From Escherichia phage dhaeg, in sequence record MN850609.1: a stretch of 64,000 nt of DNA, one strand, 5' to 3'. Made by a program: the position numbers and the translations under genes. Each line of letters starts with the position of its first letter. Positions within the stretch are counted from its first letter, which is position 1. The notes under the pieces were generated by a model. It worked only from the letters and a program-made list of their open reading frames with translations. It searched no databases and was not told the DNA's origin. Below are positions 18,264-53,809 of this stretch, in pieces.

Positions 18264-18716
18264 ATGATTATCAATGAAAACTCTTGGCATGTTAAATTAC
18301 ATGACCGCTTTTATGCCAGTTATTCGCGTCCGCGATCATTATGCGCATACTTCTGGAAAATGGTTTGGGTGTGCTTTATGTGTTCTGTGCTTGCAGGTAG
18401 TACTATTTTCGGCTTAACTGTTGCAGGTGCCGGTATATTGGAGCAGTTCTTTGTATTGAGTACTCCTGTTGGTTTAAGTTTAGGTTTTATTTTAGGACTG
18501 ATTATAATAGCCCTTATTCTAGCGGTAGCTTTTGGTTTGGTGTATGGTCTAATGAATTTATGGGCCCGGTACGATTTACGTAAAGAAGAAAAAGAATGGG
18601 AACGCATTAAAGCTAAACGTGAAGGAAAGGAAATTAAAGAAAATGTTTTCATTCAATATATTAAAGCTCGTAAATCTAAGATGTGTCCGGTAATCCATTT
18701 TGAGGCTAAGAAATGA
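18264..18716 (+). CDS. Membrane protein (two TM segments)
   Basis: SD TAAGGAAATATTATG; hydrophobic core, Lys/Glu-rich tail. Confidence 0.6.
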   Translation: MIINENSWHVKLHDRFYASYSRPRSLCAYFWKMVWVCFMCSVLAGSTIFGLTVAGAGILEQFFVLSTPVGLSLGFILGLIIIALILAVAFGLVYGLMNLWARYDLRKEEKEWERIKAKREGKEIKENVFIQYIKARKSKMCPVIHFEAKK

Positions 18717-19723
18717 GAACAGTTATGAAAGGCTACTTCGGTAGCCACCTTTATGGAACAAGTACTCCGGAATCTGATGTCGATTTTAAAGAAATCTTTG
18801 TTCCACATCCGCGTGATATTCTGTTAGGTACGGCAATGAACCATACCAACCTGAACACGAATAACACTGCTTCCAAAAACACTAAAGATGATGTTGACCA
18901 TGAGCTTTACAGTCTGAAATATTTCTTTAAACTAGCTGCTGAAGGCGAAACCGTTGCTCTGGATATGCTCCACACTCCGCCTGAAATGGTGGTTAAATCT
19001 GATTTACCTGATGTATGGAAATTTATCCAAGATAACCGTTCGCGTTTCTATACAACCAACATGAAAGCCTATTTAGGGTACGTCCGTAAGCAAGCTTCTA
19101 AATATGGTGTTAAGGGTTCTCGACTGGCTGCTTTACGTGGTGTACTGGCAATTGTTAACCAGATTCCTGAACAGTGGGTTGATTATCAAGAAGATGGTTC
19201 TACTAAGCAACGACGTACTAAGGTAGAAGATATTAAGCACCGGCTCCCTGAAAATGAGTTCTGTGAATGGGTATTTCATAACCACGAGAAAACAGGTCCT
19301 CAAACGTTCTATACCGTCCTCGGTCGTAAATACCAAACTACTTTGTCATTAATCGAGCTCAAGCAATCTCTGAATAAACTTGATGCCGAATATGGTGAAC
19401 GTGCTCGTAAGGCCGAAGCCAATGAAGGTATTGACTGGAAAGCTCTGAGCCACGCTTATCGTGCTGGATATCAGTTGAAGGAAATCTATCAAACAGGCGA
19501 TTTGGTTTATCCACTTAAAAATGCTTCTATTATTAAAGCAATAAAAGCAGGTGATATGCCTTTTAAAGTGGTCCAAGGGCTGCTAGAAAACATTGTTGAT
19601 GAAGTTGAAGTCCTGGCTGTACAAGCTCATAAGAACGGTATACCTGAGAAGGTGGACATGAAGTTCTGGGACAAGTTCGTCGAAGAGGTGTATCTTGACA
19701 ACCACAACTCTTATTACCGCTAA
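18713..19723 (+). CDS. Pol-beta-superfamily nucleotidyltransferase-like protein
   Basis: GS-x10-D-x-D signature (YFGSHLYGTSTPESDVDFKEIF). Confidence 0.65.
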   Translation: MRTVMKGYFGSHLYGTSTPESDVDFKEIFVPHPRDILLGTAMNHTNLNTNNTASKNTKDDVDHELYSLKYFFKLAAEGETVALDMLHTPPEMVVKSDLPDVWKFIQDNRSRFYTTNMKAYLGYVRKQASKYGVKGSRLAALRGVLAIVNQIPEQWVDYQEDGSTKQRRTKVEDIKHRLPENEFCEWVFHNHEKTGPQTFYTVLGRKYQTTLSLIELKQSLNKLDAEYGERARKAEANEGIDWKALSHAYRAGYQLKEIYQTGDLVYPLKNASIIKAIKAGDMPFKVVQGLLENIVDEVEVLAVQAHKNGIPEKVDMKFWDKFVEEVYLDNHNSYYR

Positions 19724-19919
19724 AGAAGAAATCAAGGTTTTCCTGTCATATGGAAGACCTCATAAAACCTGTCGTTGGTATCTTGAAGTAGTTTGTAGAG
19801 AAACCGGTAGACGAATCAATTTCAAGTACGTATGCAAGCCTACGTCTAAGCAGATAAGACGGTGTATTAACTGGGCTATCAATAATATCCGCTTCCATAA
19901 TTATTGGAGCGCAATTTAG
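19695..19919 (+). CDS. Possible small basic Cys-containing protein with TTG start
   Basis: Open frame without ATG; TTG preceded by GAAGAGG SD; uncertain. Confidence 0.3.
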   Translation: MTTTTLITAKEEIKVFLSYGRPHKTCRWYLEVVCRETGRRINFKYVCKPTSKQIRRCINWAINNIRFHNYWSAI

Positions 19920-19940
19920 GAACCTTCGGGTTCCTTTTTT
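19919..19940 (+). terminator. Rho-independent terminator
   Basis: GGAACC-TTCG-GGTTCC followed by TTTTTTT. Confidence 0.65.
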
Positions 19941-19960
19941 TGGGTTCAGCACAAAAAAGT

Positions 19961-20001
19961 GTTTACAACCTAGTAGAGCATGTTATTATGGACCTATCAA
20001 A
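19961..20001 (+). promoter_or_regulatory. Early promoter cassette (GTTTAC-N17-TGTTATTATGGACCTATCAA)
   Basis: GTTTAC 19961-19966, -10 TATTAT 19984-19989. Confidence 0.55.
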
Positions 20002-20026
20002 TCTACTGAGTGAAACGGAGAATATA

Positions 20027-21007
20027 ATGTTAACTATCAAAATCAACAAAGGTATCTATCGAGGTAATGAAATCTCTGGTACGTTCATGAGTTCAGGTAA
20101 AACCTGGTTCCCTAATAAAATTCATGAATCCGAAGCTCACCTCGGTGACGGCAAGGTATTTGTACAGATTGATGGTGTTGAACGTGGTGTGTGGGTGTTC
20201 AAATGTGACATCGAAATGGAAGGTGCTGAAGCTCCTGCAATGGTCACCGAATCCGCTGAAGAAATGAAACACCGCATCAACAAACGTTTTAAAGTAATGA
20301 ACATGATGACTAACGGAATCATCGATGGTAAAATTCGTTCCCTTATCATCTCTGGTGCCGCAGGTATTGGTAAAACATACTCTTTGGATAAAGCATTACA
20401 AAATGCCCATGAAAATGAAACTATCGAATATAAATCAATCAACGGAAAGATTAGTGGAATCGGTCTTTACGAGCAGCTTTGGAATAACCGCGGCCCTAAT
20501 AGTGTTCTTCTTATTGATGATGTTGATGTATTCTCTGACATGGATATCCTGAACCTTCTGAAAGCCGCATTGGATACTGGTGAAAAACGTAAGGTGTGTT
20601 GGAGCACTTCAAGTTCTTACCTCGACGATAAAAATATCGATAAAGAATTCGAATACGAAGGCACCATCGTGTTCATCACCAACGTTGATATTGACCGTGA
20701 ATTAGAGCGTGGAACTAAACTTGCTCCACACCTCCAGGCTTTAGTATCTCGTTCCGTTTATCTCGACTTGGGTGTTCACTCAAACGAAGAGATTATGGTT
20801 CGGGTTGAAGACGTTATCCTGTCCACTGATATGATGCAAAACCGAGGTCTGACCGATGCCGAGACTTATCAAGCTTTAGCATGGATGAAGGCTAATGTAT
20901 CTCGTCTTCGTAACGTATCATTACGTACAGCTCTTTATCTGGCGGACTTCATTGCCACCGATAAAAATGACTGGAGCGAAATCGCTGAAGTTACACTTCT
21001 GAAATAA
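20027..21007 (+). CDS. AAA+/P-loop ATPase-like protein
   Basis: Walker A GAAGIGKT, Walker B LLIDDVD; ATG 20027 after SD ACGGAGAA (track start lies in terminator/promoter). Confidence 0.65.
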   Translation: MLTIKINKGIYRGNEISGTFMSSGKTWFPNKIHESEAHLGDGKVFVQIDGVERGVWVFKCDIEMEGAEAPAMVTESAEEMKHRINKRFKVMNMMTNGIIDGKIRSLIISGAAGIGKTYSLDKALQNAHENETIEYKSINGKISGIGLYEQLWNNRGPNSVLLIDDVDVFSDMDILNLLKAALDTGEKRKVCWSTSSSYLDDKNIDKEFEYEGTIVFITNVDIDRELERGTKLAPHLQALVSRSVYLDLGVHSNEEIMVRVEDVILSTDMMQNRGLTDAETYQALAWMKANVSRLRNVSLRTALYLADFIATDKNDWSEIAEVTLLK

Positions 21008-26556: not shown

Positions 26557-26632
26557 TGAAAACTTCTACTGTAATCTTGTGCTTATGGGGAATTTTTAAT
26601 TTGGGTATGCTTGTTTACTTGGTGGGTCAATT

Positions 26633-26809
26633 ATGAAAACTAAATTAGTCTATACTGAAAAGTTAAATGGTGACAAGGTCTGGAAACTTCTTATCAAAGG
26701 AAGTCCTACCGACCAGTTTATGGCCACCTGTATAGGGTTGTATACCCGTCCTACCAAAAAGATGATTCGTCAATTTAAACGGTTGCATCGCTCATTTTAT
26801 AATGTTTAA
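26633..26809 (+). CDS. Possible small basic protein (58 aa)
   Basis: ORF below track cutoff. Confidence 0.4.
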   Translation: MKTKLVYTEKLNGDKVWKLLIKGSPTDQFMATCIGLYTRPTKKMIRQFKRLHRSFYNV

Positions 26810-26815
26810 TAAATA
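26808..26815 (+). promoter_or_regulatory. Late-promoter-like box AATAAATA upstream of gene 49, followed by CCCTTA...TAAGGG hairpin
   Basis: 7/8 match to TATAAATA; inverted repeat around SD. Confidence 0.35.
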
Positions 26816-26844
26816 CCCTTATCTAATAATGGTAAGGGTTTATT

Positions 26845-27318
26845 ATGTTGCTGACTGGCAAATTATACAAAGAAGAAAAACAAAATCTTTATGATGCACA
26901 ACATGGTAAGTGTTTGATTTGTAAACGTGAATTAAACCCTGATGTTCAAAGTAACCACCTTGACCACGACCATGAATTGAATGGGCCAAAAGCCGGTAAG
27001 GTTCGTGGTTTACTATGTAATCTGTGCAATGCTGCAGAAGGACAAATGAAGCATAAGTTCAACCGTTCTGGTTTGAAAGGTCAAAACGTTGACTACCTCG
27101 AATGGTTAGAGAATTTGCTGGTCTATCTGAAAGCTGATTATACCGAAAATAATATCCATCCTAATTTCGTTCCTGATAAAACCAAAGAGTTCAGTAGATT
27201 AGGTAAGGAAGAAATGATTGCTGAAATGCTTTCACATGGAATGACTTATAATGAATCTGACACAAAGAAACAAATGGTCGATTCATTTAAAAAACAACTG
27301 AGGAAATCGCTTAAATGA
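26845..27318 (+). CDS. 49: Endonuclease VII (Holliday junction resolvase)
   Basis: Near-colinear with T4 gp49 (MLLTGKLYKEEKQ..., Zn-binding CLICKR...C..C, HDHELNGPKAGKVRGLLCNLCN). Confidence 0.9.
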   Translation: MLLTGKLYKEEKQNLYDAQHGKCLICKRELNPDVQSNHLDHDHELNGPKAGKVRGLLCNLCNAAEGQMKHKFNRSGLKGQNVDYLEWLENLLVYLKADYTENNIHPNFVPDKTKEFSRLGKEEMIAEMLSHGMTYNESDTKKQMVDSFKKQLRKSLK

Positions 27319-27439
27319 TTAATTTTTATGGCTACACATTCTATGCTTTAGCCGAATCAGTGAATGATGCTGTACGTCTTATGGGTGTTGAGTATCCTGC
27401 TCAATGGTTATTTGTTGTAACTAACATGTGGGTTCTTTA

Positions 27440-27655
27440 ATGAATAAATTTCGTAATGCAGTTTCTGATATCTTGGCCAATATTACATTTGTCTTGTTTA
27501 TTGTGTGCCTTTTAATCCTAGTCATCCCATTTGGATTGCTGTTCGTTATTATTGGTGCGCTGAGTACTGAAAAGGGTCTCGAAGAGTCTGAGTTCGAAAA
27601 ACGAATCCAGTCTGTCCATAGTGTTATTTCTAAAATGATGAAGGTGAAAGAATGA
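27440..27655 (+). CDS. Small membrane protein
   Basis: Hydrophobic helix ANITFVLFIVCLLILVIPFGLLFVIIGAL. Confidence 0.5.
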   Translation: MNKFRNAVSDILANITFVLFIVCLLILVIPFGLLFVIIGALSTEKGLEESEFEKRIQSVHSVISKMMKVKE

Positions 27656-27948
27656 AACGTTTTGAAGAATATGTAGCTACTGATTGGGGTGCCTGGGACA
27701 AGTTCGGTCAAGAATGGTATTTCCATGATTGCGACCTTAACCCGGAATTCTTTAAAGATAAGGAAGATGACCTCAAGGACATCTATGCTCTATCAGAGAT
27801 TCACGGTATTAAACCTACTGTCTACTTCTCTTTTGATGATATGGGATTCCTTATCCAGATTTACGTCCCGTATGGAACTAATGAAGACGAAGTTATCAAA
27901 ACTTGGGACTACCAAGGAGTTATTTCCTGTGGACCAAAAGTTAACTAA
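27652..27948 (+). CDS. Hypothetical acidic protein
   Basis: ATGA overlap start. Confidence 0.55.
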   Translation: MKRFEEYVATDWGAWDKFGQEWYFHDCDLNPEFFKDKEDDLKDIYALSEIHGIKPTVYFSFDDMGFLIQIYVPYGTNEDEVIKTWDYQGVISCGPKVN

Positions 27949-30597: not shown

Positions 30598-31155
30598 ATG
30601 ACCGAAATTAAACTGACTAAAAATAACTATGTAAATAATAAGGAGCTTCTGAAAGCCATTACCCAGTGGAAAACAGAGCTCCGAGAAAATACCGATCCTA
30701 ATAAAATAGTTCGTCAGAACGATGTTATCGGCTTGGCTATTATGCTCATTGCTGAAGGCCTTTCTAAGCGTTTCAACTTCTCCGGGTATACCCAATCTTG
30801 GAAGCAAGAAATGATTGCTGATGGAATCGAAGCTTCTATTAAAGGCCTTCACAACTTCGACGAAACAAAATACGACAACCCACATGCATATATCACTATG
30901 GCTTGTTTTAATGCCTTTGTTCAGCGTATCAAGAAAGAACGTAAAGAAATGGCAAAGAAATACAGCTACTTCGTCCATAACGTTTATGACGCTAATGACG
31001 ACGACATGGTAGGTATCGCAGATGAAACTTTTATCCAGGATATTTACGACAAAATGACTCAGTATGAAACCTCTTTAGTTAAAGCGCCAGGGTCTGATAA
31101 GAGCGCCGAATCTAAAGTTGGTGAGCTGGATTTTTTATATGGAACTCAAGATTAA
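30598..31155 (+). CDS. 55: Late-transcription sigma factor gp55
   Basis: 185 aa, colinear with T4 gp55 as recalled; position upstream of 47/46. Confidence 0.8.
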
Positions 31156-31366
31156 CCTGGTAGGCCTTTTAGAAGAAGTAGATGGAGAGTATTCGGCAAT
31201 TCCTTATGTTCTTAAAATGTATCTTAAGGATATTGCCAAGCTTCCTATTGTAATAGACCCAAAACACCCTGATTCGGTAGAAATTAAAGCTGAAAAAGGA
31301 ACATTAACTTATAACTATCACGTTACCGACGAAGATTTTTATATAAAACTGAATTACAAGGATTAA
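31139..31366 (+). CDS. Hypothetical small protein
   Basis: ATG overlapping end of 55. Confidence 0.5.
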
Positions 31367-31367
31367 T

Positions 31368-31679
31368 ATGCAAAGCACCGACATTTCTCAATTGACCGAA
31401 GAGCAAATTGAAGAAGCCCAGAAGCGTTTAGAAGAGAATAATGCTAAAGAAGCCGCTTCTCAAGCTGCCAAAATTCTTAAAAAGAATGCCCGTGAAATTA
31501 AGCGTCTTAATACACATGCTCAGGGCGCTGTTCTCGAAAACAATTTCGAAGCTTACAAATATGCTATAATTAAATTACGTGGTATTTACCGTCAACCAAC
31601 TACTGACGAAATCGTTAGAGTTATGTGGGAAACTACGCGTAAACAGATTTGGGAAATTATCAATGGCGCTAGTAAATAA
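31368..31679 (+). CDS. Hypothetical coiled-coil small protein
   Basis: ORF. Confidence 0.6.
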   Translation: MQSTDISQLTEEQIEEAQKRLEENNAKEAASQAAKILKKNAREIKRLNTHAQGAVLENNFEAYKYAIIKLRGIYRQPTTDEIVRVMWETTRKQIWEIINGASK

Positions 31680-31866
31680 ACCCTTTAAACGGCTTCTTAT
31701 TGGAGCCGCCTTCAGACTTCGCTCATACGGTAATATTTGTATTAAGCAGACTGAAACCGAATATAAAATGGTTGGGCAATATTCCGATGAAATTTTTCGG
31801 ATTGAGCCTGTAGCCAAGGTTTGGGTGGATTCTCATCAACTTAAGAAATGGTGGAAACGATGGTAG
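31663..31866 (+). CDS. Possible small basic protein
   Basis: ATG 31663; overlaps previous gene by 17 nt. Confidence 0.4.
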   Translation: MALVNKPFKRLLIGAAFRLRSYGNICIKQTETEYKMVGQYSDEIFRIEPVAKVWVDSHQLKKWWKRW

Positions 31867-31956
31867 GATTTTATGAAAGCGGATGTAACGAAGACGAACA
31901 TCCGGATTTTTAAGCTTATGAATGACGAATACGAAAAAGTTTAAGAGGTCGTATGA

Positions 31957-32130
31957 ATGACGAATTCGATGGATTTTGATAAGATTAAATCTGACAAAAA
32001 TGAGATGATACTTAAATTTGAAGCTGCTCGTATTAAAGCGGAAAATGAAGGTACTATTACTTATAAGAAAATCAAGTTCAGGTCTTCTCATGAACCTCTG
32101 TATGGCGTATTAATTGGTAAAGGAGCTTAG
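31957..32130 (+). CDS. Possible small protein (57 aa)
   Basis: SD AAGAGG 8 nt upstream. Confidence 0.4.
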   Translation: MTNSMDFDKIKSDKNEMILKFEAARIKAENEGTITYKKIKFRSSHEPLYGVLIGKGA

Positions 32131-32142
32131 GCTCCTTTTTTG
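32122..32142 (+). terminator. Rho-independent terminator
   Basis: GGAGC-TTAG-GCTCC followed by TTTTTT. Confidence 0.55.
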
Positions 32143-32187
32143 CTTTCTGAATGGATGATAAAATAGATTTAATTAAGCGAGGATATT

Positions 32188-33210
32188 ATGAAAATATTAA
32201 ACACAGGTGACTGGCACCTTGGAGTTAAGAACGACGACCCTTGGGTCCAAAACATTCAATTGACCGGCATTAAAGATGCTATCAATTATTCTAAAGCAAA
32301 TGGTATTACTGTATGGATTCAATACGGTGATATTTTTGATGTCCGTAAAGCCATTACTCATAAGTGTATGGAATTTGCTAGACATATTTCAGATTTGCTT
32401 AAAGAAAACGGCATTACCATGTATACCGTTGTTGGTAACCATGATGCCCACTACAAAAATACCTTGACTCCTAATGCTGCTTCTGAAGTTCTCGGTAAAT
32501 ATGACCATATCAAGGTTATTGAAAAACCTACTACGGTTAACTTTGATGGCACCGAAATTGATTTGATTCCATGGATGTGTGAAGAAAACACGACTGATAT
32601 CATGGACCATATCAAAAATACCACAGCAGATTTCTGTGTTGGTCATTGGGAATTAAATGGTTTCTATTTCTATAAAGGAATGAAATCCCATGGTTTAGAA
32701 CCTGATTTCCTTAAAAAGTATAAGCAAGTTTGGTCTGGTCACTTCCACACTATTTCTGATGCAGCAAATGTTAAGTACATTGGTACTCCATGGACCCTGA
32801 CTGCAGGTGATGAGAACGACCCTCGTGGTTTCTGGATTTTCGATACCGAAACCCATAAAATGGATTTCATCATTAATGAAACCTGTTGGCATCGTAAGAT
32901 TCATTATCCTAATGCGACTATCGATTACAAAGATTTTACCAACATAGCAGTTCGTGTTATAGTCGATAAAATTGATGATGGCCTTACTAAGTTCGAATCA
33001 GAGCTTGAAAAGGTTGTTCACTCTTTACGTATTGTGTCTAAGGTAGATAATAGTGTTGATATCGATGATTCTGAAGAGGAAGATGAAGTTAAATCTCTCT
33101 TGGATATGATGTATGATTATATCGACGCCCTTCCTGATGGCCACACTGAAGCCGATGTTAAAGCCCTTAAGACTATGGCTGCACAACTTTATAATGAGGT
33201 TACACGATGA
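32188..33210 (+). CDS. 47: Recombination nuclease subunit gp47 (Mre11-like)
   Basis: Phosphoesterase motifs (GDWHLG, GNHD, GHWE...); 340 aa; adjacent to gp46. Confidence 0.9.
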   Translation: MKILNTGDWHLGVKNDDPWVQNIQLTGIKDAINYSKANGITVWIQYGDIFDVRKAITHKCMEFARHISDLLKENGITMYTVVGNHDAHYKNTLTPNAASEVLGKYDHIKVIEKPTTVNFDGTEIDLIPWMCEENTTDIMDHIKNTTADFCVGHWELNGFYFYKGMKSHGLEPDFLKKYKQVWSGHFHTISDAANVKYIGTPWTLTAGDENDPRGFWIFDTETHKMDFIINETCWHRKIHYPNATIDYKDFTNIAVRVIVDKIDDGLTKFESELEKVVHSLRIVSKVDNSVDIDDSEEEDEVKSLLDMMYDYIDALPDGHTEADVKALKTMAAQLYNEVTR

Positions 33211-33470
33211 CTTTAGATGAATTCAAAAAATCGGGACTTGAACTGGAACACGACTGTATAGTTATTGATGATGATGGTCAACCTAGTACAATTAAGTTCT
33301 GGTTTGAAGCCGTGAGCACTCGTGATACCGGCGAGCTTATTAAAGTTTATGTTGCTACCGATTGGGCTGTAGAATTTAGTTTTAATGTAATGGAAGATGA
33401 TACTCCAGAGGCATTAATTCATATGGCTGAATCATGCATCAAGGATGCTTATAACGATGAAGACTTTTAA
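33207..33470 (+). CDS. Hypothetical small acidic protein
   Basis: ORF between 47 and 46. Confidence 0.55.
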   Translation: MTLDEFKKSGLELEHDCIVIDDDGQPSTIKFWFEAVSTRDTGELIKVYVATDWAVEFSFNVMEDDTPEALIHMAESCIKDAYNDEDF

Positions 33471-41554: not shown

Positions 41555-41791
41555 ATGGAAGCTTTAATCGTTAGTGCTGGTGTTTTAGGATTCGGTTCTC
41601 TGGTTATTATGTTCATTGGTTACTTTTTACCATGGATTCTGGCTCTTCTGCGAGGCACTCGTAGCAATGTCGGAATCTTCTTCCTTAATCTCCTGTTAGG
41701 ATGGACGATGATTGGTTGGGTAGTGGCTTTAATCTGGGCTATCGTCGCTGAACGTAAATCAAACGCACAAATCATTATCGTTAAACAATGA
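41555..41791 (+). CDS. imm: Superinfection immunity protein (Imm family membrane protein)
   Basis: Two TM helices; motif LPWILALLRG...NLLLGWTMIGWVVALIWA typical of Imm superinfection-immunity family; position after gene 43. Confidence 0.7.
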   Translation: MEALIVSAGVLGFGSLVIMFIGYFLPWILALLRGTRSNVGIFFLNLLLGWTMIGWVVALIWAIVAERKSNAQIIIVKQ

Positions 41792-41932: not shown

Positions 41933-42433
41933 ATGAAAAAGTTAATTATCGCAATGAGTATGCTCCTATCAGGTTGCGCGGTCCAATACGGCGATGCAGT
42001 TTCGGCTGATGAAGTTGGTAAAGCTCGTATTGCAGCTGAACAGAAACAATTCGACGGCGAAATGAAATTCCGTGCTGGTTCTGGACTTGTGTATACCCGA
42101 GCTAATAATCAATGTGGTAATAACTGTGCAAAATATGCTCAAAGGGAAATCGAATTCCAACGTGAACAAGAGTCTAAGCGTGAAGCGGTACTAGCCAAAC
42201 ACCAGGCAGAAATGAAGCGCCAAGATGATTTGTACAAAAAGCAGAAACTGTACGCGATGTGTGTAAACCATATCAATCTACAGATTTCCGTCCACGAGGC
42301 CCGTTATTACGAAATGCTCGAAACCGAGAGCTTCGATAAGGCGCGCGATTATAAGAAACAAATCAACAAGCTTAAGACCAAAGTGCCTGCTGCAGTAGAA
42401 CAGTGCATGGAATACGGTAAAGATAAGATTTAA
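41933..42433 (+). CDS. Lipoprotein
   Basis: Lipobox LLSGC; SD GAGGATATTATG. Confidence 0.6.
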   Translation: MKKLIIAMSMLLSGCAVQYGDAVSADEVGKARIAAEQKQFDGEMKFRAGSGLVYTRANNQCGNNCAKYAQREIEFQREQESKREAVLAKHQAEMKRQDDLYKKQKLYAMCVNHINLQISVHEARYYEMLETESFDKARDYKKQINKLKTKVPAAVEQCMEYGKDKI

Positions 42434-42493: not shown

Positions 42494-44167
42494 ATGAAAA
42501 AGGTTGTTATTTTAGGCGCAGGTCTTGGCTCACGGTTGTATCCAATTACTAACGAAATCCCGAAGGTATTGGTTAACTACAAACAACATACTGTATTAAA
42601 ACATTTGTATGATTTGTATAGTAACCAATCAGATGAAATTATTCTGGTTATCCACAGCAAATTTAACGACCTCGTTAAAGGCTATATTAAATCCATTAAC
42701 ATGATTACTGGCGATAAGCCTAAATTCACTATTCGTAACGTTGATGTTGCTAATGGTTCGGCCCATGCTATCGATTGCATTGCCGAAGATATCATTGGCC
42801 ATAATGTCTTGTTTAACTGGTGTGACATCATTCCTATCGGTCATAAAGTTGAATGGGGTAACGACTACTGTTATACCTATGGAACCGACTGTCGTTTTAC
42901 ATTCGAAGAACCATATTTACGTGAAATTGGTACTGGTGGTGGCGTAGTTGGTTTGTATCAGGTGGCTAACTGGACAGGTTTCGACCGTTCTAATTATGGT
43001 GAAGACCTTGCTGATAACCTGGATTCAATGGTCTATTTGACCGAACGTAAACTAGACTTTGTAGTTGATGTCGGTGACAAATTGAAACTGGCTAAGGCCC
43101 ATGAAGAATCTGAAATCAATCGTGAATTTAATAAATTAGAATTCACTGAGAATCTGGCCATTAAAGTACCAACTAACGAATTAGGTAAAGAAATTCAATC
43201 TAAAGAAATCAATTGGTATAATTCTATTGATTCTGAATTTGTTCCTAGTATTGTGGACTTTTCTCCAGGCGAATTCATTAAAATGGAACGTATCTTTGGT
43301 CGTACCATGGCAGATGCCTACCGCTTTATGTCCAAAGAAACTAAAGTCCTCATGGTTTATAAGGTCATTAGTGCATTACGTTCATTTGGTGGAACTATCG
43401 ATAATCCGTCCGATGAACAATGGTATTCTGATGTTAAGAAAGAAGTATTGGACAAGGTCCTTATTCGTAATGCTTCTATTGCTGGATTGATTGAAGGCTT
43501 TGCTCCACAAGGCATTACCCACGTTAACGATTTCAAAGTAGGCGACCCTGAAAAACTTCTCCGCCATGCACTAGAAATTCTGTCTGAACATAAAGAACCA
43601 TACCAACTTATTCATGGCGACCCGCACTACAGTAATATTATGCTGTCGGACGAAGGTGATATTAAAATCATCGACCCACGCGGTTATTTCGGTAATAGTT
43701 CTAAAGGCCCTGCGATTTATGATGAAGCTAAGGTGCTTTATTCTATCGATGGCTATGATAAATTTAACTCAGACCCTCTATGGGGTGGATTAACTCGTAA
43801 CGGAACTCGTGTATTCGTTGATATCGAAAAGGTTATGCCTTTAGACGATATCCCTATGTGCACATTTAAGCACAAGCTCTGGATTGCCGTTATTTGGATG
43901 GCTCTGGCAGGTTACTTTAAGAATAACCCTCTGAAAGCTCTGGGTGCTTATTATAATGGTTTGTATCAACTGAGTGTGCTGCTGAAGCGGCATCCTCGTA
44001 AGCGTAAGCTTATTACGGGTGAATTTGTCGATGAAGTTCGTGACCCTATTACGGCTCAAATTATTACTCGTTGTCCTGATAAGTGGGTTTTGCTTGACCA
44101 GGAAACTGGTGTAAAATATAAACCTACAGGTTCTACTGAACTCCACAAACAATGGAAGAAAATTTAA
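42494..44167 (+). CDS. Bifunctional sugar-1-phosphate nucleotidyltransferase / APH-fold (anomeric sugar or choline-type) kinase
   Basis: N-term MKKVVILGAGLGSRLYPITNEIPKVL (GxGxR..PxT..PK NTase signature); C-term HGDPHYSNIM ... IIDPRGYFG kinase catalytic/ Mg loops; ATG after SD GAGGAA. Confidence 0.65.
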   Translation: MKKVVILGAGLGSRLYPITNEIPKVLVNYKQHTVLKHLYDLYSNQSDEIILVIHSKFNDLVKGYIKSINMITGDKPKFTIRNVDVANGSAHAIDCIAEDIIGHNVLFNWCDIIPIGHKVEWGNDYCYTYGTDCRFTFEEPYLREIGTGGGVVGLYQVANWTGFDRSNYGEDLADNLDSMVYLTERKLDFVVDVGDKLKLAKAHEESEINREFNKLEFTENLAIKVPTNELGKEIQSKEINWYNSIDSEFVPSIVDFSPGEFIKMERIFGRTMADAYRFMSKETKVLMVYKVISALRSFGGTIDNPSDEQWYSDVKKEVLDKVLIRNASIAGLIEGFAPQGITHVNDFKVGDPEKLLRHALEILSEHKEPYQLIHGDPHYSNIMLSDEGDIKIIDPRGYFGNSSKGPAIYDEAKVLYSIDGYDKFNSDPLWGGLTRNGTRVFVDIEKVMPLDDIPMCTFKHKLWIAVIWMALAGYFKNNPLKALGAYYNGLYQLSVLLKRHPRKRKLITGEFVDEVRDPITAQIITRCPDKWVLLDQETGVKYKPTGSTELHKQWKKI

Positions 44168-44550
44168 TGTCGCATCGAGTAGAAAATAAGCCACATTTAT
44201 GTTTTGATATCGATAACACAATCACGATTTGGAACCATGACCGTGATTATGAGAACTTTAAACCGGACACCGAAATGGTGTCCATGATTAATAAGCTTTA
44301 TGATGAAGGGTACGAGATTACATTGTTCACTGCCCGTGGCATGACTTCATGTGGCCCAGGTCGAATCTTGGTTGAAGTAGTTCCTGCATTGGTTAAGAAT
44401 CTTGAAAAAATTGGATTGAAATATCACAATTTGCTTACACACAAGCCGAGTTATACTTTTATCATCGATGACCGAGCAATCCGTCCTGACCACTTTAAAG
44501 AATTGGTTCGTGAAGGAACTCTTGATAGTTATAAGGCCTATCATCCATGA
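44167..44550 (+). CDS. HAD-superfamily phosphatase-like protein
   Basis: Motif I CFDIDNTIT (DxDxT); 127 aa. Confidence 0.55.
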   Translation: MSHRVENKPHLCFDIDNTITIWNHDRDYENFKPDTEMVSMINKLYDEGYEITLFTARGMTSCGPGRILVEVVPALVKNLEKIGLKYHNLLTHKPSYTFIIDDRAIRPDHFKELVREGTLDSYKAYHP

Positions 44551-45083
44551 ATCCAAAAATCATTGTTATAGACGGCCCGGATAATTCCGGGAAGTCCACT
44601 TTAATTAAAAATCTGTTATCCAATAAGAAATACCGCCTTATTGATTTTCCTAAAAAGATTAATGGCAAGTGTATTTCATTAGGAACTGATAACGATAAGG
44701 CTTTAGTTGAAACTCTGTATAAGTTTTTAGACCCTAATTTCGTTTATATCCTTGACCGTGGTTATCCAAGTAATATTGTTTACTCAGGATTCCTTCGTGG
44801 TGAAATGGACCCTTATGTAGAACTGGAAGATTGGAAAGGGTTTAAATCTGAATTTAACGTTATCGAGGTTATTTTAACTCGCAACCCATTAGACGAAGAC
44901 TTCGAAGATGACCTTATTAAATTAACCAAAGATGAGTTCAACCTAACTATCCAGCAATACGAAACATGTTTTGAAAACGTGTTTAAAATCTTAAATCATG
45001 ACGGTCATAATAATTTGCTTAATGTTGATATGGTAGAATTAAAACGTCTGAACGAATATATTGAAAATAAGGTGAATAAATGA
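44547..45083 (+). CDS. P-loop nucleotide kinase (thymidylate/dNMP kinase-like)
   Basis: IVIDGPDNSGKSTL Walker A and LDRGYPS; 178 aa. Confidence 0.55.
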   Translation: MNPKIIVIDGPDNSGKSTLIKNLLSNKKYRLIDFPKKINGKCISLGTDNDKALVETLYKFLDPNFVYILDRGYPSNIVYSGFLRGEMDPYVELEDWKGFKSEFNVIEVILTRNPLDEDFEDDLIKLTKDEFNLTIQQYETCFENVFKILNHDGHNNLLNVDMVELKRLNEYIENKVNK

Positions 45084-45778
45084 AACACATTACCGCTGTT
45101 AGTTTTGAAAACGCATTTAAACAAATGAACGAAGAAATCCTGGAAGCTCCACAGTTTGCAGTTGATTCTCGTATCGGACGCTGTTATGAAATTGGTTCTG
45201 CTTCAGTAGAAGTACTGGATGCCAGCACCTATAAATTCACCGACCCACGTATCAATCGTATCAGTTATGAATATGCCGAATCCTTTTGGAAATTTATGAT
45301 TTCTGGTGGTACTGACGCTGCCGAAGCATTTAAGGAATACCCTAATGTTGCTAAGTTCATTGATAAGCCGAAAAGTGACGTATTGCCTGCAAACTTCAAC
45401 ACTTTCTATGGACCTCGAATTGTGGCCCAGCTCCCAGCCCTACTTAAAGAGCTTAAAGAAAAGGCTAACTCGCGAAGAGTTGTGTTCCAGATTCTCCAAG
45501 AACAAGACCAAGCCCTCCTTGATTCTGACGAATCCTTAGAATACCCGTGCACCGATTCAGTAACGTATTATATTCGTGATGGTCGTTTGTATGCACATAC
45601 CCATATGCGTTCACAAAACTGCGCTGTTGTTATGCAGCTGGATTTCTATCTGCAGGGTAAACTGATGGCATTTATTGCCGAACAGTGTGGTGTCGGTTTA
45701 GGTACGTATTCCCACACCATGGTAAGTGCACACGTGTTTGAACGTGATTTTGACTACGTCCGAGGTTTCCTGAAATGA
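45080..45778 (+). CDS. Thymidylate-synthase-family pyrimidine hydroxymethylase (diverged gp42-like)
   Basis: YPCTDSVTYYIRDGRLYAHTHMRSQN vs T4 gp42 FMCTNTVQYLIRDKKINAVVNMRSND (catalytic Cys context), position of gene 42. Confidence 0.6.
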   Translation: MKHITAVSFENAFKQMNEEILEAPQFAVDSRIGRCYEIGSASVEVLDASTYKFTDPRINRISYEYAESFWKFMISGGTDAAEAFKEYPNVAKFIDKPKSDVLPANFNTFYGPRIVAQLPALLKELKEKANSRRVVFQILQEQDQALLDSDESLEYPCTDSVTYYIRDGRLYAHTHMRSQNCAVVMQLDFYLQGKLMAFIAEQCGVGLGTYSHTMVSAHVFERDFDYVRGFLK

Positions 45779-46668
45779 GTTTGTTTATCGTTCCTATTTT
45801 CAGTATGCGTAGTTACGAAACAGGTGAATATGCCGTCCTTAAGGACGGTAATTTTCAACTCCATTTAAATCGTGCTCGTCCAGGTGATTATCTGGCTTAT
45901 CCTAGAAATTCGAGCGATATCAAAGAATGCATTGAATTATTCCCAGAACTGAATTTCGTACCACTTTGGTATAAAGAAAATGCTTATGAAACCCGTAAAC
46001 ATTTCTGGTCCGAAAATGAGTTTGTAGTCGATTCACTAATCGAATACTATGATTGCTCAGGACTGGTAACCGATATCACCGGTTATGATGGTGCTCATAC
46101 TGTACAATTCAACTTTAATATCACAATGGACCCTGAAGTTCCTCGTTATTATATCGACGAGTTCATTGATATTGATGTGGCTTCAGTTGAACGTTCACTT
46201 TATACTACAGTCCTGAATCAATGCCAGAAAGACGTCCTGGTGTCACGAGGTGCATCCTCTGATAAGATTTTTGTAGACCAAAAGGTAATTAATCCTGCAG
46301 TAATTGAGCGTTACTCTGATGGTCTAGCGCCTATTAAAATTGATGGTATTTTCCATCCATTCCGTATTTCGGATAAGTGCTATCAATTCGAAAGAGTTGT
46401 AGACCAAGCTGCCGCTGAAGGTGCTCGTCTTTATATCACCGACCCGAATGATTCATTTAAGCGTGAAGACTATCGTCCTGATGTAGAGATTGTTAAATTC
46501 AAACCGAGTAAGGTTGAATATTATCAGATTCTGAAATCAAGACCACATATCATTTATCATGAGAACCCAGGTTTAGTATTCCATCCTGGTCTGGCTGAAT
46601 TCATTTATTTCGGTGCCCATATTCATTCTGAGTACGAAATGCCACGTTATGAGGACGTAGTATGCTAG
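45775..46668 (+). CDS. Unknown 297-aa protein in the beta-gt slot; candidate DNA sugar transferase
   Basis: Position only (between hydroxymethylase and uvsX where T4 has beta-gt); no similarity to T4 beta-gt seen. Confidence 0.35.
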   Translation: MSLFIVPIFSMRSYETGEYAVLKDGNFQLHLNRARPGDYLAYPRNSSDIKECIELFPELNFVPLWYKENAYETRKHFWSENEFVVDSLIEYYDCSGLVTDITGYDGAHTVQFNFNITMDPEVPRYYIDEFIDIDVASVERSLYTTVLNQCQKDVLVSRGASSDKIFVDQKVINPAVIERYSDGLAPIKIDGIFHPFRISDKCYQFERVVDQAAAEGARLYITDPNDSFKREDYRPDVEIVKFKPSKVEYYQILKSRPHIIYHENPGLVFHPGLAEFIYFGAHIHSEYEMPRYEDVVC

Positions 46669-46871: not shown

Positions 46872-48044
46872 ATGTCCGATTTAAAATCCCGTTTGATTAA
46901 AGCTTCTACTTCTAAAATGACTGCCGATCTGACCAAATCTAAATTGTTTAATGGTCGTGACGAAGTTCCTACTCGTATTCCTATGCTTAATATTGCATTG
47001 GGTGGTGCGTTGAATGCAGGCTTACAATCAGGTTTGACAATCTTTGCTGCACCGTCTAAACACTTTAAAACGTTGTTTGGATTAACTATGGTTGCGGCAT
47101 ATATGAAGAAATATCCAGACGCAATTTGCTTGTTCTATGACTCTGAGTTCGGTGCTTCAGAATCTTATTTCCGTTCAATGGGTGTTGACCTGGAACGTGT
47201 GGTTCATACGCCAATCCAGTCAGTCGAACAACTGAAGGTTGACATGACCAACCAATTAGAAGAAATTACTCGTGGCGAAAAGGTTATTATCTTTATCGAC
47301 TCCATCGGTAATACTGCTTCTAAGAAAGAAACCGAAGATGCTTTGAACGAGAAAGTTGTAGGTGATATGACTCGTGCTAAGTCTCTGAAATCTCTGTTCC
47401 GTATCGTAACACCTTATTTGACTATCAAGGATATTCCTTGCGTAGCAATTAACCATACGGCTATGGAAATTGGTGGAATGTATCCTAAAGAGATTATGGG
47501 TGGTGGTACTGGTATTCTGTACTCTGCTTCTACCGTATTCTTTATCTCTAAACGTCAGGTTAAAGATGGTACCGAGCTCACTGGTTATGACTTCACCCTT
47601 AAGGCCGAAAAATCTCGTACTGTTAAAGAGAAATCAACGTTCCCAATTACTGTGAACTTTGAAGGTGGTATCGACCCGTTTAGTGGTCTGCTCGAAATGG
47701 CTACTGATATTGGCTTTGTCGTGAAACCTAAAGCTGGTTGGTATAATCGTGCATTCCTTGACGAAACTACAGGTGAAATGGTTCAAGAAGAAAAATCATG
47801 GCGTGCTAAAGCTACCGATTGTGTCGAGTTCTGGGGACCGCTGTTTAAACATGCCCCGTTCCGTGAAGCAATCGAGAATAAGTATAAGCTTGGTGCAATT
47901 AATTCTATTAAAGAAGTCGATGATGCCGTGAACGACCTTATTAACTCTCGTGTCTCTAAGAACGTTGCAGTTAAATTGAGTGGTGACGCTCAAAGTGCTG
48001 CTGATATCGAAAACGATTTAGAAGAGATGGATTTAGATGACTGA
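46872..48044 (+). CDS. uvsX: Recombinase UvsX (RecA-like)
   Basis: Colinear with T4 UvsX as recalled (MSDLKSRLIKASTSK...IPMLNIALGG..., Walker A GPSKHFKT). Confidence 0.9.
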   Translation: MSDLKSRLIKASTSKMTADLTKSKLFNGRDEVPTRIPMLNIALGGALNAGLQSGLTIFAAPSKHFKTLFGLTMVAAYMKKYPDAICLFYDSEFGASESYFRSMGVDLERVVHTPIQSVEQLKVDMTNQLEEITRGEKVIIFIDSIGNTASKKETEDALNEKVVGDMTRAKSLKSLFRIVTPYLTIKDIPCVAINHTAMEIGGMYPKEIMGGGTGILYSASTVFFISKRQVKDGTELTGYDFTLKAEKSRTVKEKSTFPITVNFEGGIDPFSGLLEMATDIGFVVKPKAGWYNRAFLDETTGEMVQEEKSWRAKATDCVEFWGPLFKHAPFREAIENKYKLGAINSIKEVDDAVNDLINSRVSKNVAVKLSGDAQSAADIENDLEEMDLDD

Positions 48045-53287: not shown

Positions 53288-53809
53288 ATGGCTCATTTTA
53301 ATGAATGTTCTCAACTTATTGCTGGTGCTGATAAAGCTGAAGAAGCTTATTTTAATGCTCTGATTCACGAAGATAAAGACCCTCTGCAAGTTATGCTTGA
53401 TATGCAGAAATCATTACAGGTTCGTCTGGCCACTGAAAAATCGGAATTCAACACCAATCCTGATGAACTAGCTACAGCAGGTCAAGTTGTTGATTGGCTT
53501 CGCAACCAGAAAGATTATATTGATGATGAATTCCGTGAACTGCTGACTTCTCTTGGCGGTATGAGTAATGGCGAAAAAGCTGCCTCTAGTGTGTGGAAGC
53601 CTTGGAAAGCCCAACATGCTGAATTCCGTAATCGTCGTATTGACGAGTTGTCTCCTGAAGACCAGCTCGAAATCAAATTCGAGATGATTGATATTCTGCA
53701 CTTTGTTCTTAATATGTTCCAGGGTCTTGGACTGACCGCTGAAGAAATCTTTAAACTGTATTATCTGAAAAATGCCGAGAACTTTGCTCGTCAAGACCGA
53801 GGTTATTAA
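53288..53809 (+). CDS. 56: dCTPase/dUTPase gp56 (MazG-like dNTP pyrophosphatase)
   Basis: 173 aa; similarity to T4 gp56 as recalled (MAHFNEC..., C-terminal YYLKN.ENFARQDRGY). Confidence 0.75.
   Translation: MAHFNECSQLIAGADKAEEAYFNALIHEDKDPLQVMLDMQKSLQVRLATEKSEFNTNPDELATAGQVVDWLRNQKDYIDDEFRELLTSLGGMSNGEKAASSVWKPWKAQHAEFRNRRIDELSPEDQLEIKFEMIDILHFVLNMFQGLGLTAEEIFKLYYLKNAENFARQDRGY

Follow-up and report, generated by a model that had tools for sequence, protein, structure and literature searches.

The T4-like coliphage from which the 64-kb stretch of DNA analysed here (the window) derives appears to carry no T4-type alpha- or beta-glucosyltransferase gene, because a different cytosine-hypermodification pathway is encoded between imm and uvsX. 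It is quite probable that the phage uses an RB69-type pathway leading to arabinosyl-5-hydroxycytosine, with an empty a-gt slot and no glucosylated hydroxymethylcytosine (hmC). Judged by its sequence, the source is a JS98-type T4-like coliphage of the genus Dhakavirus whose nearest relative is Escherichia phage dhabil; the two align in blocks of 94-99% identity that together span some 98% of the window (96-99% identity over most of its length). The absence of glucosyltransferase genes from JS98 was stated in 2010 (PMC2993671), and the RB69 cluster was said in 2026, on the basis of comparative genomics, to extend to Dhakaviruses (PMC13326640). The empty a-gt slot and the RB69-type arabinosylation genes are thus real but already published for this phage group, and the finding adds nothing beyond the JS98 and RB69 literature.

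The interval between genes 55 and 47 (31156-32187, 1032 bp) begins after the end of gene 55 at 31155 and stops before the start of gene 47 at 32188. Its left boundary, the late sigma factor gene 55 (30598..31155, plus strand), encodes 185 aa with 78.5% identity to T4 gp55 over 185 aa (PHROG 234, E = 3e-68). Its right boundary, gene 47 (32188..33210, plus strand), encodes a Mre11/SbcD-like nuclease subunit of 340 aa with 70.7% identity to T4 gp47 (PHROG 100, E = 1e-135). The original prediction held that the interval contains no alpha-gt gene, only four short open reading frames (75, 103, 67, and 57 aa) and a terminator, and this description proved correct. No open reading frame of a-gt size (400 aa) is found on either strand of the interval.

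All four short reading frames lie on the plus strand and encode proteins of unknown function that are 43-58% identical to T4 a-gt.5, a-gt.4, a-gt.3, and a-gt.2; by this homology they can be identified as those conserved T4 genes rather than as filler. The a-gt.5 homologue (31139..31366, 75 aa, 50.7% identity; Pfam DUF5491, E = 1e-18), whose counterpart is annotated under that name in JS98, starts 17 nt inside gene 55. It is followed by the a-gt.4 homologue (31368..31679, 103 aa, 43% identity; DUF2654, E = 1e-24) and by the a-gt.3 homologue (31663..31866, 67 aa, 43% identity, E = 6e-14), which overlaps the end of a-gt.4 just as it does in T4. The a-gt.2 homologue (31957..32130, 57 aa, 58.5% identity; DUF5486, E = 4e-21) is the last of the four. 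Each matches a PHROG family (1169, 951, 1648, and 2140, with a-gt.3 matching PHROG 1648 at E = 1e-28), and three of the four have Pfam matches (E 1e-18 to 1e-24). A 122-aa frame at 31723-32091, the longest on the minus strand, and the remaining overlapping frames were rejected as unsupported and as lying opposite conserved plus-strand genes.

The gene order in T4 is 55, a-gt.5, a-gt.4, a-gt.3, a-gt.2, mobB, a-gt, 47.1, and 47, which bears out the earlier statement that an alpha-gt gene of about 400 aa (400 aa in T4) sits between 47 and 55 in that phage. The window, dhabil, and RB69 share the order 55, a-gt.5, a-gt.4, a-gt.3, a-gt.2, and 47, so that relative to T4 the window lacks only mobB, a-gt, and 47.1. 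In Klebsiella phage Mineola (Jiaodavirus), by contrast, a-gt occupies the slot between a-gt.2 and 47. Nucleotide identity in the 55-47 region is 92-97% to the Dhakaviruses JS98, JS10, dhabil, and IME08 (97% to dhabil, 96% to JS98), and these four phages have the same a-gt.5 to a-gt.2 series without a-gt and the same imm-uvsX cluster. Small differences accompany this conserved order: 47.1 is missing in the window and dhabil but retained in the otherwise identical a-gt-free order of JS98, whereas 46.1 is missing in the window but present in both dhabil and JS98. These are small indels that have no bearing on the DNA-modification question. The comparison with T4-like genomes lacking glucosyltransferases that had been proposed as a check leads to RB69, whose empty slot is identical to that of the window and whose DNA has been shown chemically to carry arabinosylated 5-hydroxycytosine (PMC13326640). 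Apart from its empty a-gt slot, the 55-47 interval is the one usual in Tevenvirinae.

The site at which T4 and Jiaodavirus carry a-gt is marked in the window by a terminator-like hairpin found by a terminator scan (32119-32138, plus strand; AAAGGAGC-TTAG-GCTCCTTT, then TTTGCTTTCT). The hairpin has a folding energy of -12.1 kcal/mol (z = -1.6), holds the a-gt.2 stop codon in its loop, and is kept in dhabil, JS98, and RB69. The 57 nt from the a-gt.2 stop to the start of gene 47 contain this hairpin, a promoter-like site, and a ribosome-binding site. The promoter-like site (32141..32164, plus strand), detected by pattern match and kept in relatives, combines a MotA-box-like TGCTTTC with a -10 element TAAAAT and is a putative middle promoter for gene 47. 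Its Mot box ends in C, whereas TGCTTTA is aligned in JS98, RB69, and T4. Matches to TGCTT-N13-15-TAWAAT number 8, where 0.89 would be expected, and 7 of them are on the plus strand; sigma-70 promoters in the interval show no excess (5 versus 6.5 expected). The arrangement of hairpin, Mot box, and -10 element before gene 47 resembles the PeSL and PmSL modules of T4-like phages (Arbiol 2010, Comeau 2014). In T4, comparable hairpins follow both a-gt.2 and a-gt, and a hairpin and Mot-box module stands on either side of mobB and a-gt, compared with a single module in the window. Promoter/stem-loop modules have a described role at indel borders (PMC4122927), and the T4 modules that bracket the mobB and a-gt cassette would fit that role.

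An empty slot would say nothing about modification if a T4-type alpha- or beta-glucosyltransferase lay elsewhere in the genome, since the window is 64 kb of a genome of about 166-170 kb and b-gt homologues occur in varied phage genera. Searches with tblastn, made over the window and the dhabil genome, argue against such a gene, and an alpha-gt homologue elsewhere, named in the original prediction as its refutation, did not turn up in these sequences. In the window, the best match to T4 a-gt has E = 0.027 over 36 residues (44317-44424), falls inside a HAD-phosphatase gene, and was dismissed as being at chance level; T4 b-gt (351 aa) gives a best E of 1.1. In the complete dhabil genome (165,644 bp), a-gt finds no homologue (best E 0.07) and b-gt has no match at E <= 1. 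For the roughly 100 kb of phage genome beyond the window, the check was made by way of the relative dhabil and of the opening 41.5 kb of the JS98 record. Full-length a-gt matches are found in 657 phage records, Tequatrovirus and Jiaodavirus members among them. The dhabil annotation names no glucosyl- or glycosyltransferase product anywhere in the genome, and Pfam searches of further long frames of unknown function in the window return DUF7275/DUF7277, RlaP, AAA, and DUF7235 but no glycosyltransferase. A glucosyltransferase outside the window is therefore extremely unlikely, given also that JS98-type phages are reported to lack such genes (PMC2993671) and that the substrate hmC is probably not made, as indicated by the gene at the gene 42 position.

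That gene (45080..45778, plus strand) encodes a thymidylate-synthase (TS) homologue, predicted to be a 5-hydroxy-dCMP synthase, with 79.7% identity to RB69 gp48 and 24.5% to T4 gp42. It matches Pfam Thymidylat_synt (E = 4e-13) and PDB entries 9iqu and 9iqc (E = 2e-125); these structures were not accepted as the Dhakavirus enzyme itself, as the aligned sequence is RB69/HY126-like and differs from the window protein at many residues. When the protein is aligned with E. coli ThyA (its numbering, C146 and R166, being as expected), T4 gp42, and RB69 gp48, it shows RSQNCAVVMQLD, identical to RB69. The residues C146, L143E, D169N, and N177D (E. coli ThyA numbering) are all common to RB69 gp48. The protein therefore has the C146, N177D, and L143D/E features of T4-type dCMP hydroxymethylases but not their Asp169, which T4 gp42 keeps and which is Asn here, and it has the signature of a 5-hydroxy-dCMP synthase of the RB69 gp48/DLP3 gp80 type (D169N and N177D together with the catalytic Cys and acidity at residue 143). 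RB69 gp48 has been shown experimentally to make 5-hydroxy-dCMP, not hydroxymethyl-dCMP, and D169N is reported as diagnostic (PMC13326640). Since the TS homologue resembles this enzyme, the phage probably makes no hmC.

Plain, unglycosylated hmC in place of cytosine, with host restriction handled by other means, was the earliest alternative suggested for JS98 and RB69 and was left open by Petrov et al. in 2010 (PMC2993671). A homologue at the gene 42 position and gp56 are indeed present, as are alc and denB in dhabil, yet the far closer relationship to RB69 gp48 than to T4 gp42 and the D169N change absent from the latter speak against this reading, as do the GT-B transferase and sugar-activating fusion enzyme encoded alongside the TS homologue. 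It is highly unlikely. The original expectation that T4-like glucosylation of hmC does not take place in this phage is supported both by the absence of a-gt and b-gt and by the RB69-type gp48 homologue standing in place of gp42.

The beta-gt slot had likewise been described as having non-T4 content, and it does: the genes between imm and uvsX correspond one by one to those of the RB69 cytosine-arabinosylation cluster. Orthologues of RB69 (Mosigvirus) gp48 (80%), gp46:47 (65-70%), gp51 (62%), gp52:53 (41-44%), and gp45 (38%) are found in the window between gp43/imm and uvsX, and JS98 orf38-orf44 are annotated as RB69 orf047c, 048c, 045c, 051c, 052c, and 054c-like. All cluster genes of the window are on the plus strand. 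The first (42494..44167) encodes a fusion of a sugar-1-phosphate nucleotidyltransferase and a sugar kinase (AfhE/RB69 gp52:53-like; PHROG 4098, E = 4e-268), with Pfam NTP_transferase at residues 13-110 and APH at residues 356-427 and with 44% identity to RB69p053 and 41% to RB69p052; it is predicted to make the NDP-sugar donor. Next is a HAD-type phosphatase (44167..44550; AfhF/RB69 gp51-like, 62% identity to RB69p051, PHROG 1238), which has no Pfam match but whose translation contains the DxDxT motif as DIDNT. A thymidylate-kinase-like nucleotide kinase follows (44547..45083; RB69 gp45-like, 38% identity to RB69p045, E = 3e-31, PHROG 761) with the P-loop GPDNSGKST; its gene precedes the TS gene in the window, whereas in RB69 it comes after the glycosyltransferase gene. 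At the T4 beta-gt position lies a GT-B glycosyltransferase of 297 aa (45775..46668) of the gp46:47 type, 70% and 65% identical to RB69 p047 and p046 and predicted to be the first DNA arabinosyltransferase; for RB69 gp46:47, too, PMC13326640 puts the transferase role forward as a hypothesis rather than as a biochemical result. Outside the cluster, gene 56 (53288..53806, plus strand) encodes a dCTPase with 67.6% identity to T4 gp56, which would remove dCTP so that only modified cytosine enters DNA.

The pathway is not a full copy of the characterised RB69 one, because three of its components are missing. RB69 has an arabinose-5-phosphate isomerase (gp55), gp50, and a second arabinosyltransferase (gp3); with tblastn, RB69p055 has no match at E <= 1 in the window or dhabil, and neither contains a p050 or p003 homologue. 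The position of the RB69 isomerase gene is taken in the window by a 166-aa lipoprotein-like gene. The rIIA.1-gene 39 slot, where RB69 carries gp3, lies just outside the window; dhabil has only two small open reading frames there, and the corresponding 590 bp or so of JS98 bear no annotation, whether of a gp3-like gene or otherwise.

In the proposed pathway to arabinosyl-5-hydroxycytosine, gp56 would supply dCMP, which the D169N TS homologue would convert to 5-hydroxy-dCMP rather than hydroxymethyl-dCMP. Kinases would then raise this product to the triphosphate, and the phage polymerase would insert the modified base in place of cytosine. The kinase/nucleotidyltransferase fusion and the HAD phosphatase would convert arabinose-5-phosphate to NDP-arabinofuranose, from which the one compact GT-B transferase would transfer a single arabinose to the 5-hydroxyl of the base in DNA. 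Since the phage encodes no isomerase, the arabinose-5-phosphate presumably comes from KdsD and GutQ, the arabinose-5-phosphate isomerases of the E. coli host. The DNA form is probably mono-arabinosyl, since RB69's second transferase and its isomerase have no counterpart here; RB69 DNA contains mono- and di-arabinosyl 5-hydroxycytosine, whereas mono-arabinosylation alone is predicted for the window phage. The present analysis establishes the glycosyltransferase fold, the sequence signatures, and which genes are present in what order, whereas the enzyme activities are taken from the literature on the RB69, DLP3, and HY126 orthologues; from these together we infer the sugar's identity, its mono-arabinosyl state, and the dependence on host isomerases. 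The modified base is a prediction, as searches of the accessible literature turned up no chemical or nucleoside analysis for the DNA of any Dhakavirus.

The logic of this pathway is shared with T4 (gp42, alpha-gt, beta-gt), in which a dCTPase, a TS-family enzyme acting on dCMP, and post-replicative GT-B glycosylation are also combined and the genes for modification sit at the corresponding genomic position (that of gene 42/b-gt). The T4 base, however, is glucosylated hydroxymethylcytosine, whereas that predicted here is 5-hydroxycytosine with an ether-linked pentose. A second likeness, drawn from published description rather than sequence, is to the minimal pentosyl-cytosine cluster of Shewanella phage Thanatos (TH1_060, TH1_062, TH1_063), a phage of distant host and lineage that likewise encodes a nucleotidyltransferase-kinase fusion of about 560 aa, a TS homologue of about 235 aa, and a glycosyltransferase-fold protein of about 300 aa, with no mention of an isomerase (PMC12838424) and with mono-glycosylation reported (PMC13326640).

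The sugar on 5-hydroxycytosine might instead be another pentose or a hexose, given the lack of an isomerase and the divergence of the donor-making enzyme. The missing p055 and p050 homologues fit this alternative, and a different sugar is conceivable because the fusion enzyme shares no more than 41-44% identity with that of RB69; hexoses occur on 5-hydroxycytosine in Rhizobium phage RL38JI (PMC13326640), and a Thanatos cluster protein has UDP-xylose pyrophosphorylase activity in vitro (PMC12838424). Weighing against it are the closer resemblance of the transferase (65-70%) and HAD phosphatase (62%) to the RB69 enzymes and the availability of KdsD and GutQ from the host. Thanatos, moreover, is mono-arabinosylated with a single ara-GT (PMC13326640) and has a similar complement of genes (a 561-aa fusion, a TS homologue, and a 300-aa glycosyltransferase-fold protein) in whose description the word isomerase is never used (PMC12838424). 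A non-arabinose sugar is accordingly unlikely. The broader proposal, that Dhakaviruses have a stripped-down, host-dependent 5-hydroxycytosine glycosylation pathway (one transferase, no isomerase) whose product could differ from that of RB69, at the least in being strictly mono-glycosylated and at the most in bearing a non-arabinose sugar, is as a whole likewise improbable; if true, 5-hydroxycytosine with such a sugar would add a novel base to those of coliphage DNA.

In practice the result bears on the annotation of the window: the gene at the gene 42 position should be labelled 5-hydroxy-dCMP synthase, in place of dCMP hydroxymethylase or thymidylate synthase, and the 297-aa "hypothetical protein" should be labelled DNA glycosyltransferase. 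Which restriction, CRISPR, and type IV defences a T4-like phage can evade depends on how its cytosine is modified, and this matters for the choice of therapeutic coliphages, a purpose for which JS98-type phages were isolated.

Genes 55 (30598-31155, plus strand, 78.5% identity to T4 gp55) and 47 (32188-33210, plus strand, 70.7% identity to T4 gp47) are separated by 1032 bp on the window's plus strand, which runs the same way as early and middle transcription in T4. Four small plus-strand ORFs are found here: homologues of a-gt.5 (31139-31366, 75 aa), a-gt.4 (31368-31679, 103 aa), a-gt.3 (31663-31866, 67 aa), and a-gt.2 (31957-32130, 57 aa). They are 43-58% identical to their T4 namesakes, in the same order; three of the four fall into Pfam families (DUF5491, DUF2654, DUF5486) and each of the four has a PHROG match (1169, 951, 1648, 2140), with E-values of 1e-18 to 1e-41. 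The T4 names are also used for these genes in the record of JS98, a phage of the genus Dhakavirus. All four are thus genuine genes kept across relatives, and the original observation of four such ORFs and a terminator was right in every detail.

The T4 order (55, a-gt.5, a-gt.4, a-gt.3, a-gt.2, mobB, a-gt, 47.1, 47) places the alpha-glucosyltransferase gene (a-gt) between 47 and 55, as had been stated; compared with it, the interval is therefore the T4 interval without mobB, a-gt, and 47.1. Jiaodavirus Mineola carries a-gt in the exactly equivalent slot, between a-gt.2 and 47, with neither mobB nor 47.1. Because a-gt.5 to a-gt.2 occur in phages of differing DNA modifications, these genes are not bound to glucosylation, their names notwithstanding. 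Gene 47.1, whose product in T4 and in JS98 is a small membrane protein, is missing from 32131-32187 and likewise from RB69 and from dhabil, the nearest relative. A 13-nt sequence, ATGAATGACGAAT, is directly repeated at 31918-31930 and 31953-31965, just ahead of the a-gt.2 start and spanning it; JS98 shares the repeat, dhabil has one copy, and the arrangement resembles a small tandem duplication of the region around this start.

The slot is bordered by a terminator-like hairpin (32119-32138, plus strand, -12.1 kcal/mol) with a T-run, and directly after this a-gt.2 hairpin lies TTTGCTTTC-N11-TAAAAT, a putative promoter with a Mot-box and -10 arrangement. Hairpin and promoter-like site are both kept in dhabil, JS98, and RB69. 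In T4 a like module follows a-gt.2 and recurs after a-gt, so that the mobB and a-gt cassette is bracketed; such stem-loop/promoter modules have been described as favoured borders of indels among T4-like phages (PMC4122927). The loose pattern TGCTT-N13-15-TAWAAT occurs eight times in the window (0.89 expected by chance), seven times on the plus strand (2076, 3764, 17758, 27227, 32141, 35330, and 55073) and once on the minus strand (57446). All eight sites are candidates for middle promoters that depend on MotA.

Over the 55-47 region, the window shares 97.2% identity with Escherichia phage dhabil and about 96% with JS98 and JS10, all Dhakavirus; about 98% of the whole window aligns with dhabil in blocks of 94-99% identity, with a few small indels between them. 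The T4 alpha- and beta-glucosyltransferase (b-gt) proteins, taken from the T4 record, were used as tblastn queries against the window and the complete 165,644-bp dhabil genome. No homologue of either was detected in the two sequences (best matches of at most 36 residues, E >= 0.027), and the noted absence of a-gt between 55 and 47 is borne out. The dhabil annotation has no product named glucosyl- or glycosyl-transferase, and the other long window ORFs without known function lack a glycosyltransferase Pfam domain. Within the phage collection, 657 records have full-length a-gt, among them members of Tequatrovirus and phages of Klebsiella/Raoultella (Mineola is one), and 126 have b-gt.

Gene 46.1, present in T4, RB69, JS98, and dhabil, is absent (33207-33470 / 33457): 46.2 is followed directly by gene 46, and compared with dhabil about 205 bp are deleted. 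T4 nrdG, the gene for the anaerobic ribonucleotide reductase activase, has no homologue in the window (about 26600-27700, from 55.8 towards gene 49); between 55.8 and endonuclease VII the dhabil annotation has one small ORF, neither nrdG nor nrdD. In the nrdC.x region, two long ORFs (18713-19723 and 19904-21007) have an RlaP-type nucleotidyltransferase domain and an AAA/STAND-like NTPase plus HTH domain; their dhabil counterparts are labelled 'thioredoxin', apparently in error.

The content of the beta-gt slot, from imm (41555-41791) to uvsX (46872-48044), had also been noted as non-T4, and it is: in place of gene 42, b-gt, and segA, which T4 carries here, the window has six different genes. 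These encode a 166-aa lipoprotein-like protein (41933-42433; LLSGC lipoprotein-type signal sequence, PHROG 1754), a 557-aa fusion in which an NTP_transferase domain at the N-terminus is joined to an APH-type kinase domain at the C-terminus, a 127-aa HAD-type phosphatase that carries a DIDNT motif, a 178-aa thymidylate-kinase-like P-loop nucleotide kinase (44547-45083), a 232-aa thymidylate-synthase (TS) homologue (45080-45778), and a 297-aa protein (45775-46668). The lipoprotein-like ORF heads the cluster, at the position of the RB69 arabinose-5-phosphate isomerase. Identities to RB69 are 44% and 41% (p053/p052), 62% (p051), 38% (p045), 79.7% (p048), and 70% and 65% (p047/p046), and the JS98 annotation already labels the cluster genes RB69 orf-like. 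With no a-gt or b-gt homologue and an RB69-type cluster in the beta-gt slot, the comparisons support the proposal that this phage would not glucosylate hmC as T4 does.

In RB69 and Acinetobacter phage DLP3, cytosine is replaced by arabinosylated 5-hydroxycytosine, the sugar being ether-linked straight to C5 with no hydroxymethyl between (Lee et al., NAR 2026, PMC13326640). RB69 gp48 converts dCMP to 5-hydroxy-dCMP, and D169N (E. coli ThyA numbering) is diagnostic of enzymes that do so; gp52:53 and gp51 are counterparts of HY126 AfhE and AfhF, which convert arabinose-5-phosphate to UDP-arabinofuranose; and gp46:47 and gp3 are the proposed first and second DNA arabinosyltransferases (PMC13326640). 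Aligned with E. coli ThyA, T4 gp42 (dCMP hydroxymethylase), and RB69 gp48, the window TS homologue has C146, L143E, N177D, and D169N. The motif RSQNCAVVMQLD is the same in this protein and RB69, and Asp169 is kept in T4 gp42, which is only 24.5% identical to the window protein. The TS homologue also matches PDB 9iqu and 9iqc (E = 2e-125).

The 297-aa protein has no sequence match in Pfam or PDB. Its 117 collected homologues, none carrying a name and 43 of them aligned, come from phages of Escherichia, Edwardsiella, Yersinia, Acinetobacter, Providencia, Pseudomonas, and Serratia (including Serratia phage 92A1). The AlphaFold2 model (mean pLDDT 95, pTM 0.90) has a fold in common with T4 a-gt, with no sequence similarity in tblastn. 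From these results, the phage encodes a DNA-glycosyltransferase candidate.

For RB69, the question of the modification received its answer in 2018, with a correction in 2025-2026. Petrov et al. had raised the possibility of another modification in these phages (PMC2993671), and Lee et al. extend the pathway by comparative genomics to Dhakaviruses among other genera (PMC13326640). The observation made on this window is right and its interpretation supported; both are already in print for this phage group. No nucleoside analysis of any Dhakavirus was found in the literature searched.

Neither the window nor dhabil has a homologue of RB69 p055 (arabinose-5-phosphate isomerase), p050, or p003 (second transferase). 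In RB69, p003 lies in the rIIA.1-39 slot; dhabil has just two small ORFs there, and JS98 about 590 bp without annotation. The gene set is therefore minimal, made up of the fusion enzyme, the phosphatase, the TS homologue, and a single transferase. While p045 follows the transferase gene and adjoins uvsX in RB69, its window counterpart is placed after the HAD phosphatase gene and before the TS gene, a local rearrangement inside the cluster. The minimal set resembles that listed for Shewanella phage Thanatos (PMC12838424), which is described as mono-arabinosylated with one ara-GT (PMC13326640). For the Dhakavirus cluster, the predicted base is mono-arabinosyl-5-hydroxycytosine. KdsD and GutQ are the arabinose-5-phosphate isomerases of the E. 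coli host, and they would supply the arabinose-5-phosphate from which this base is made.
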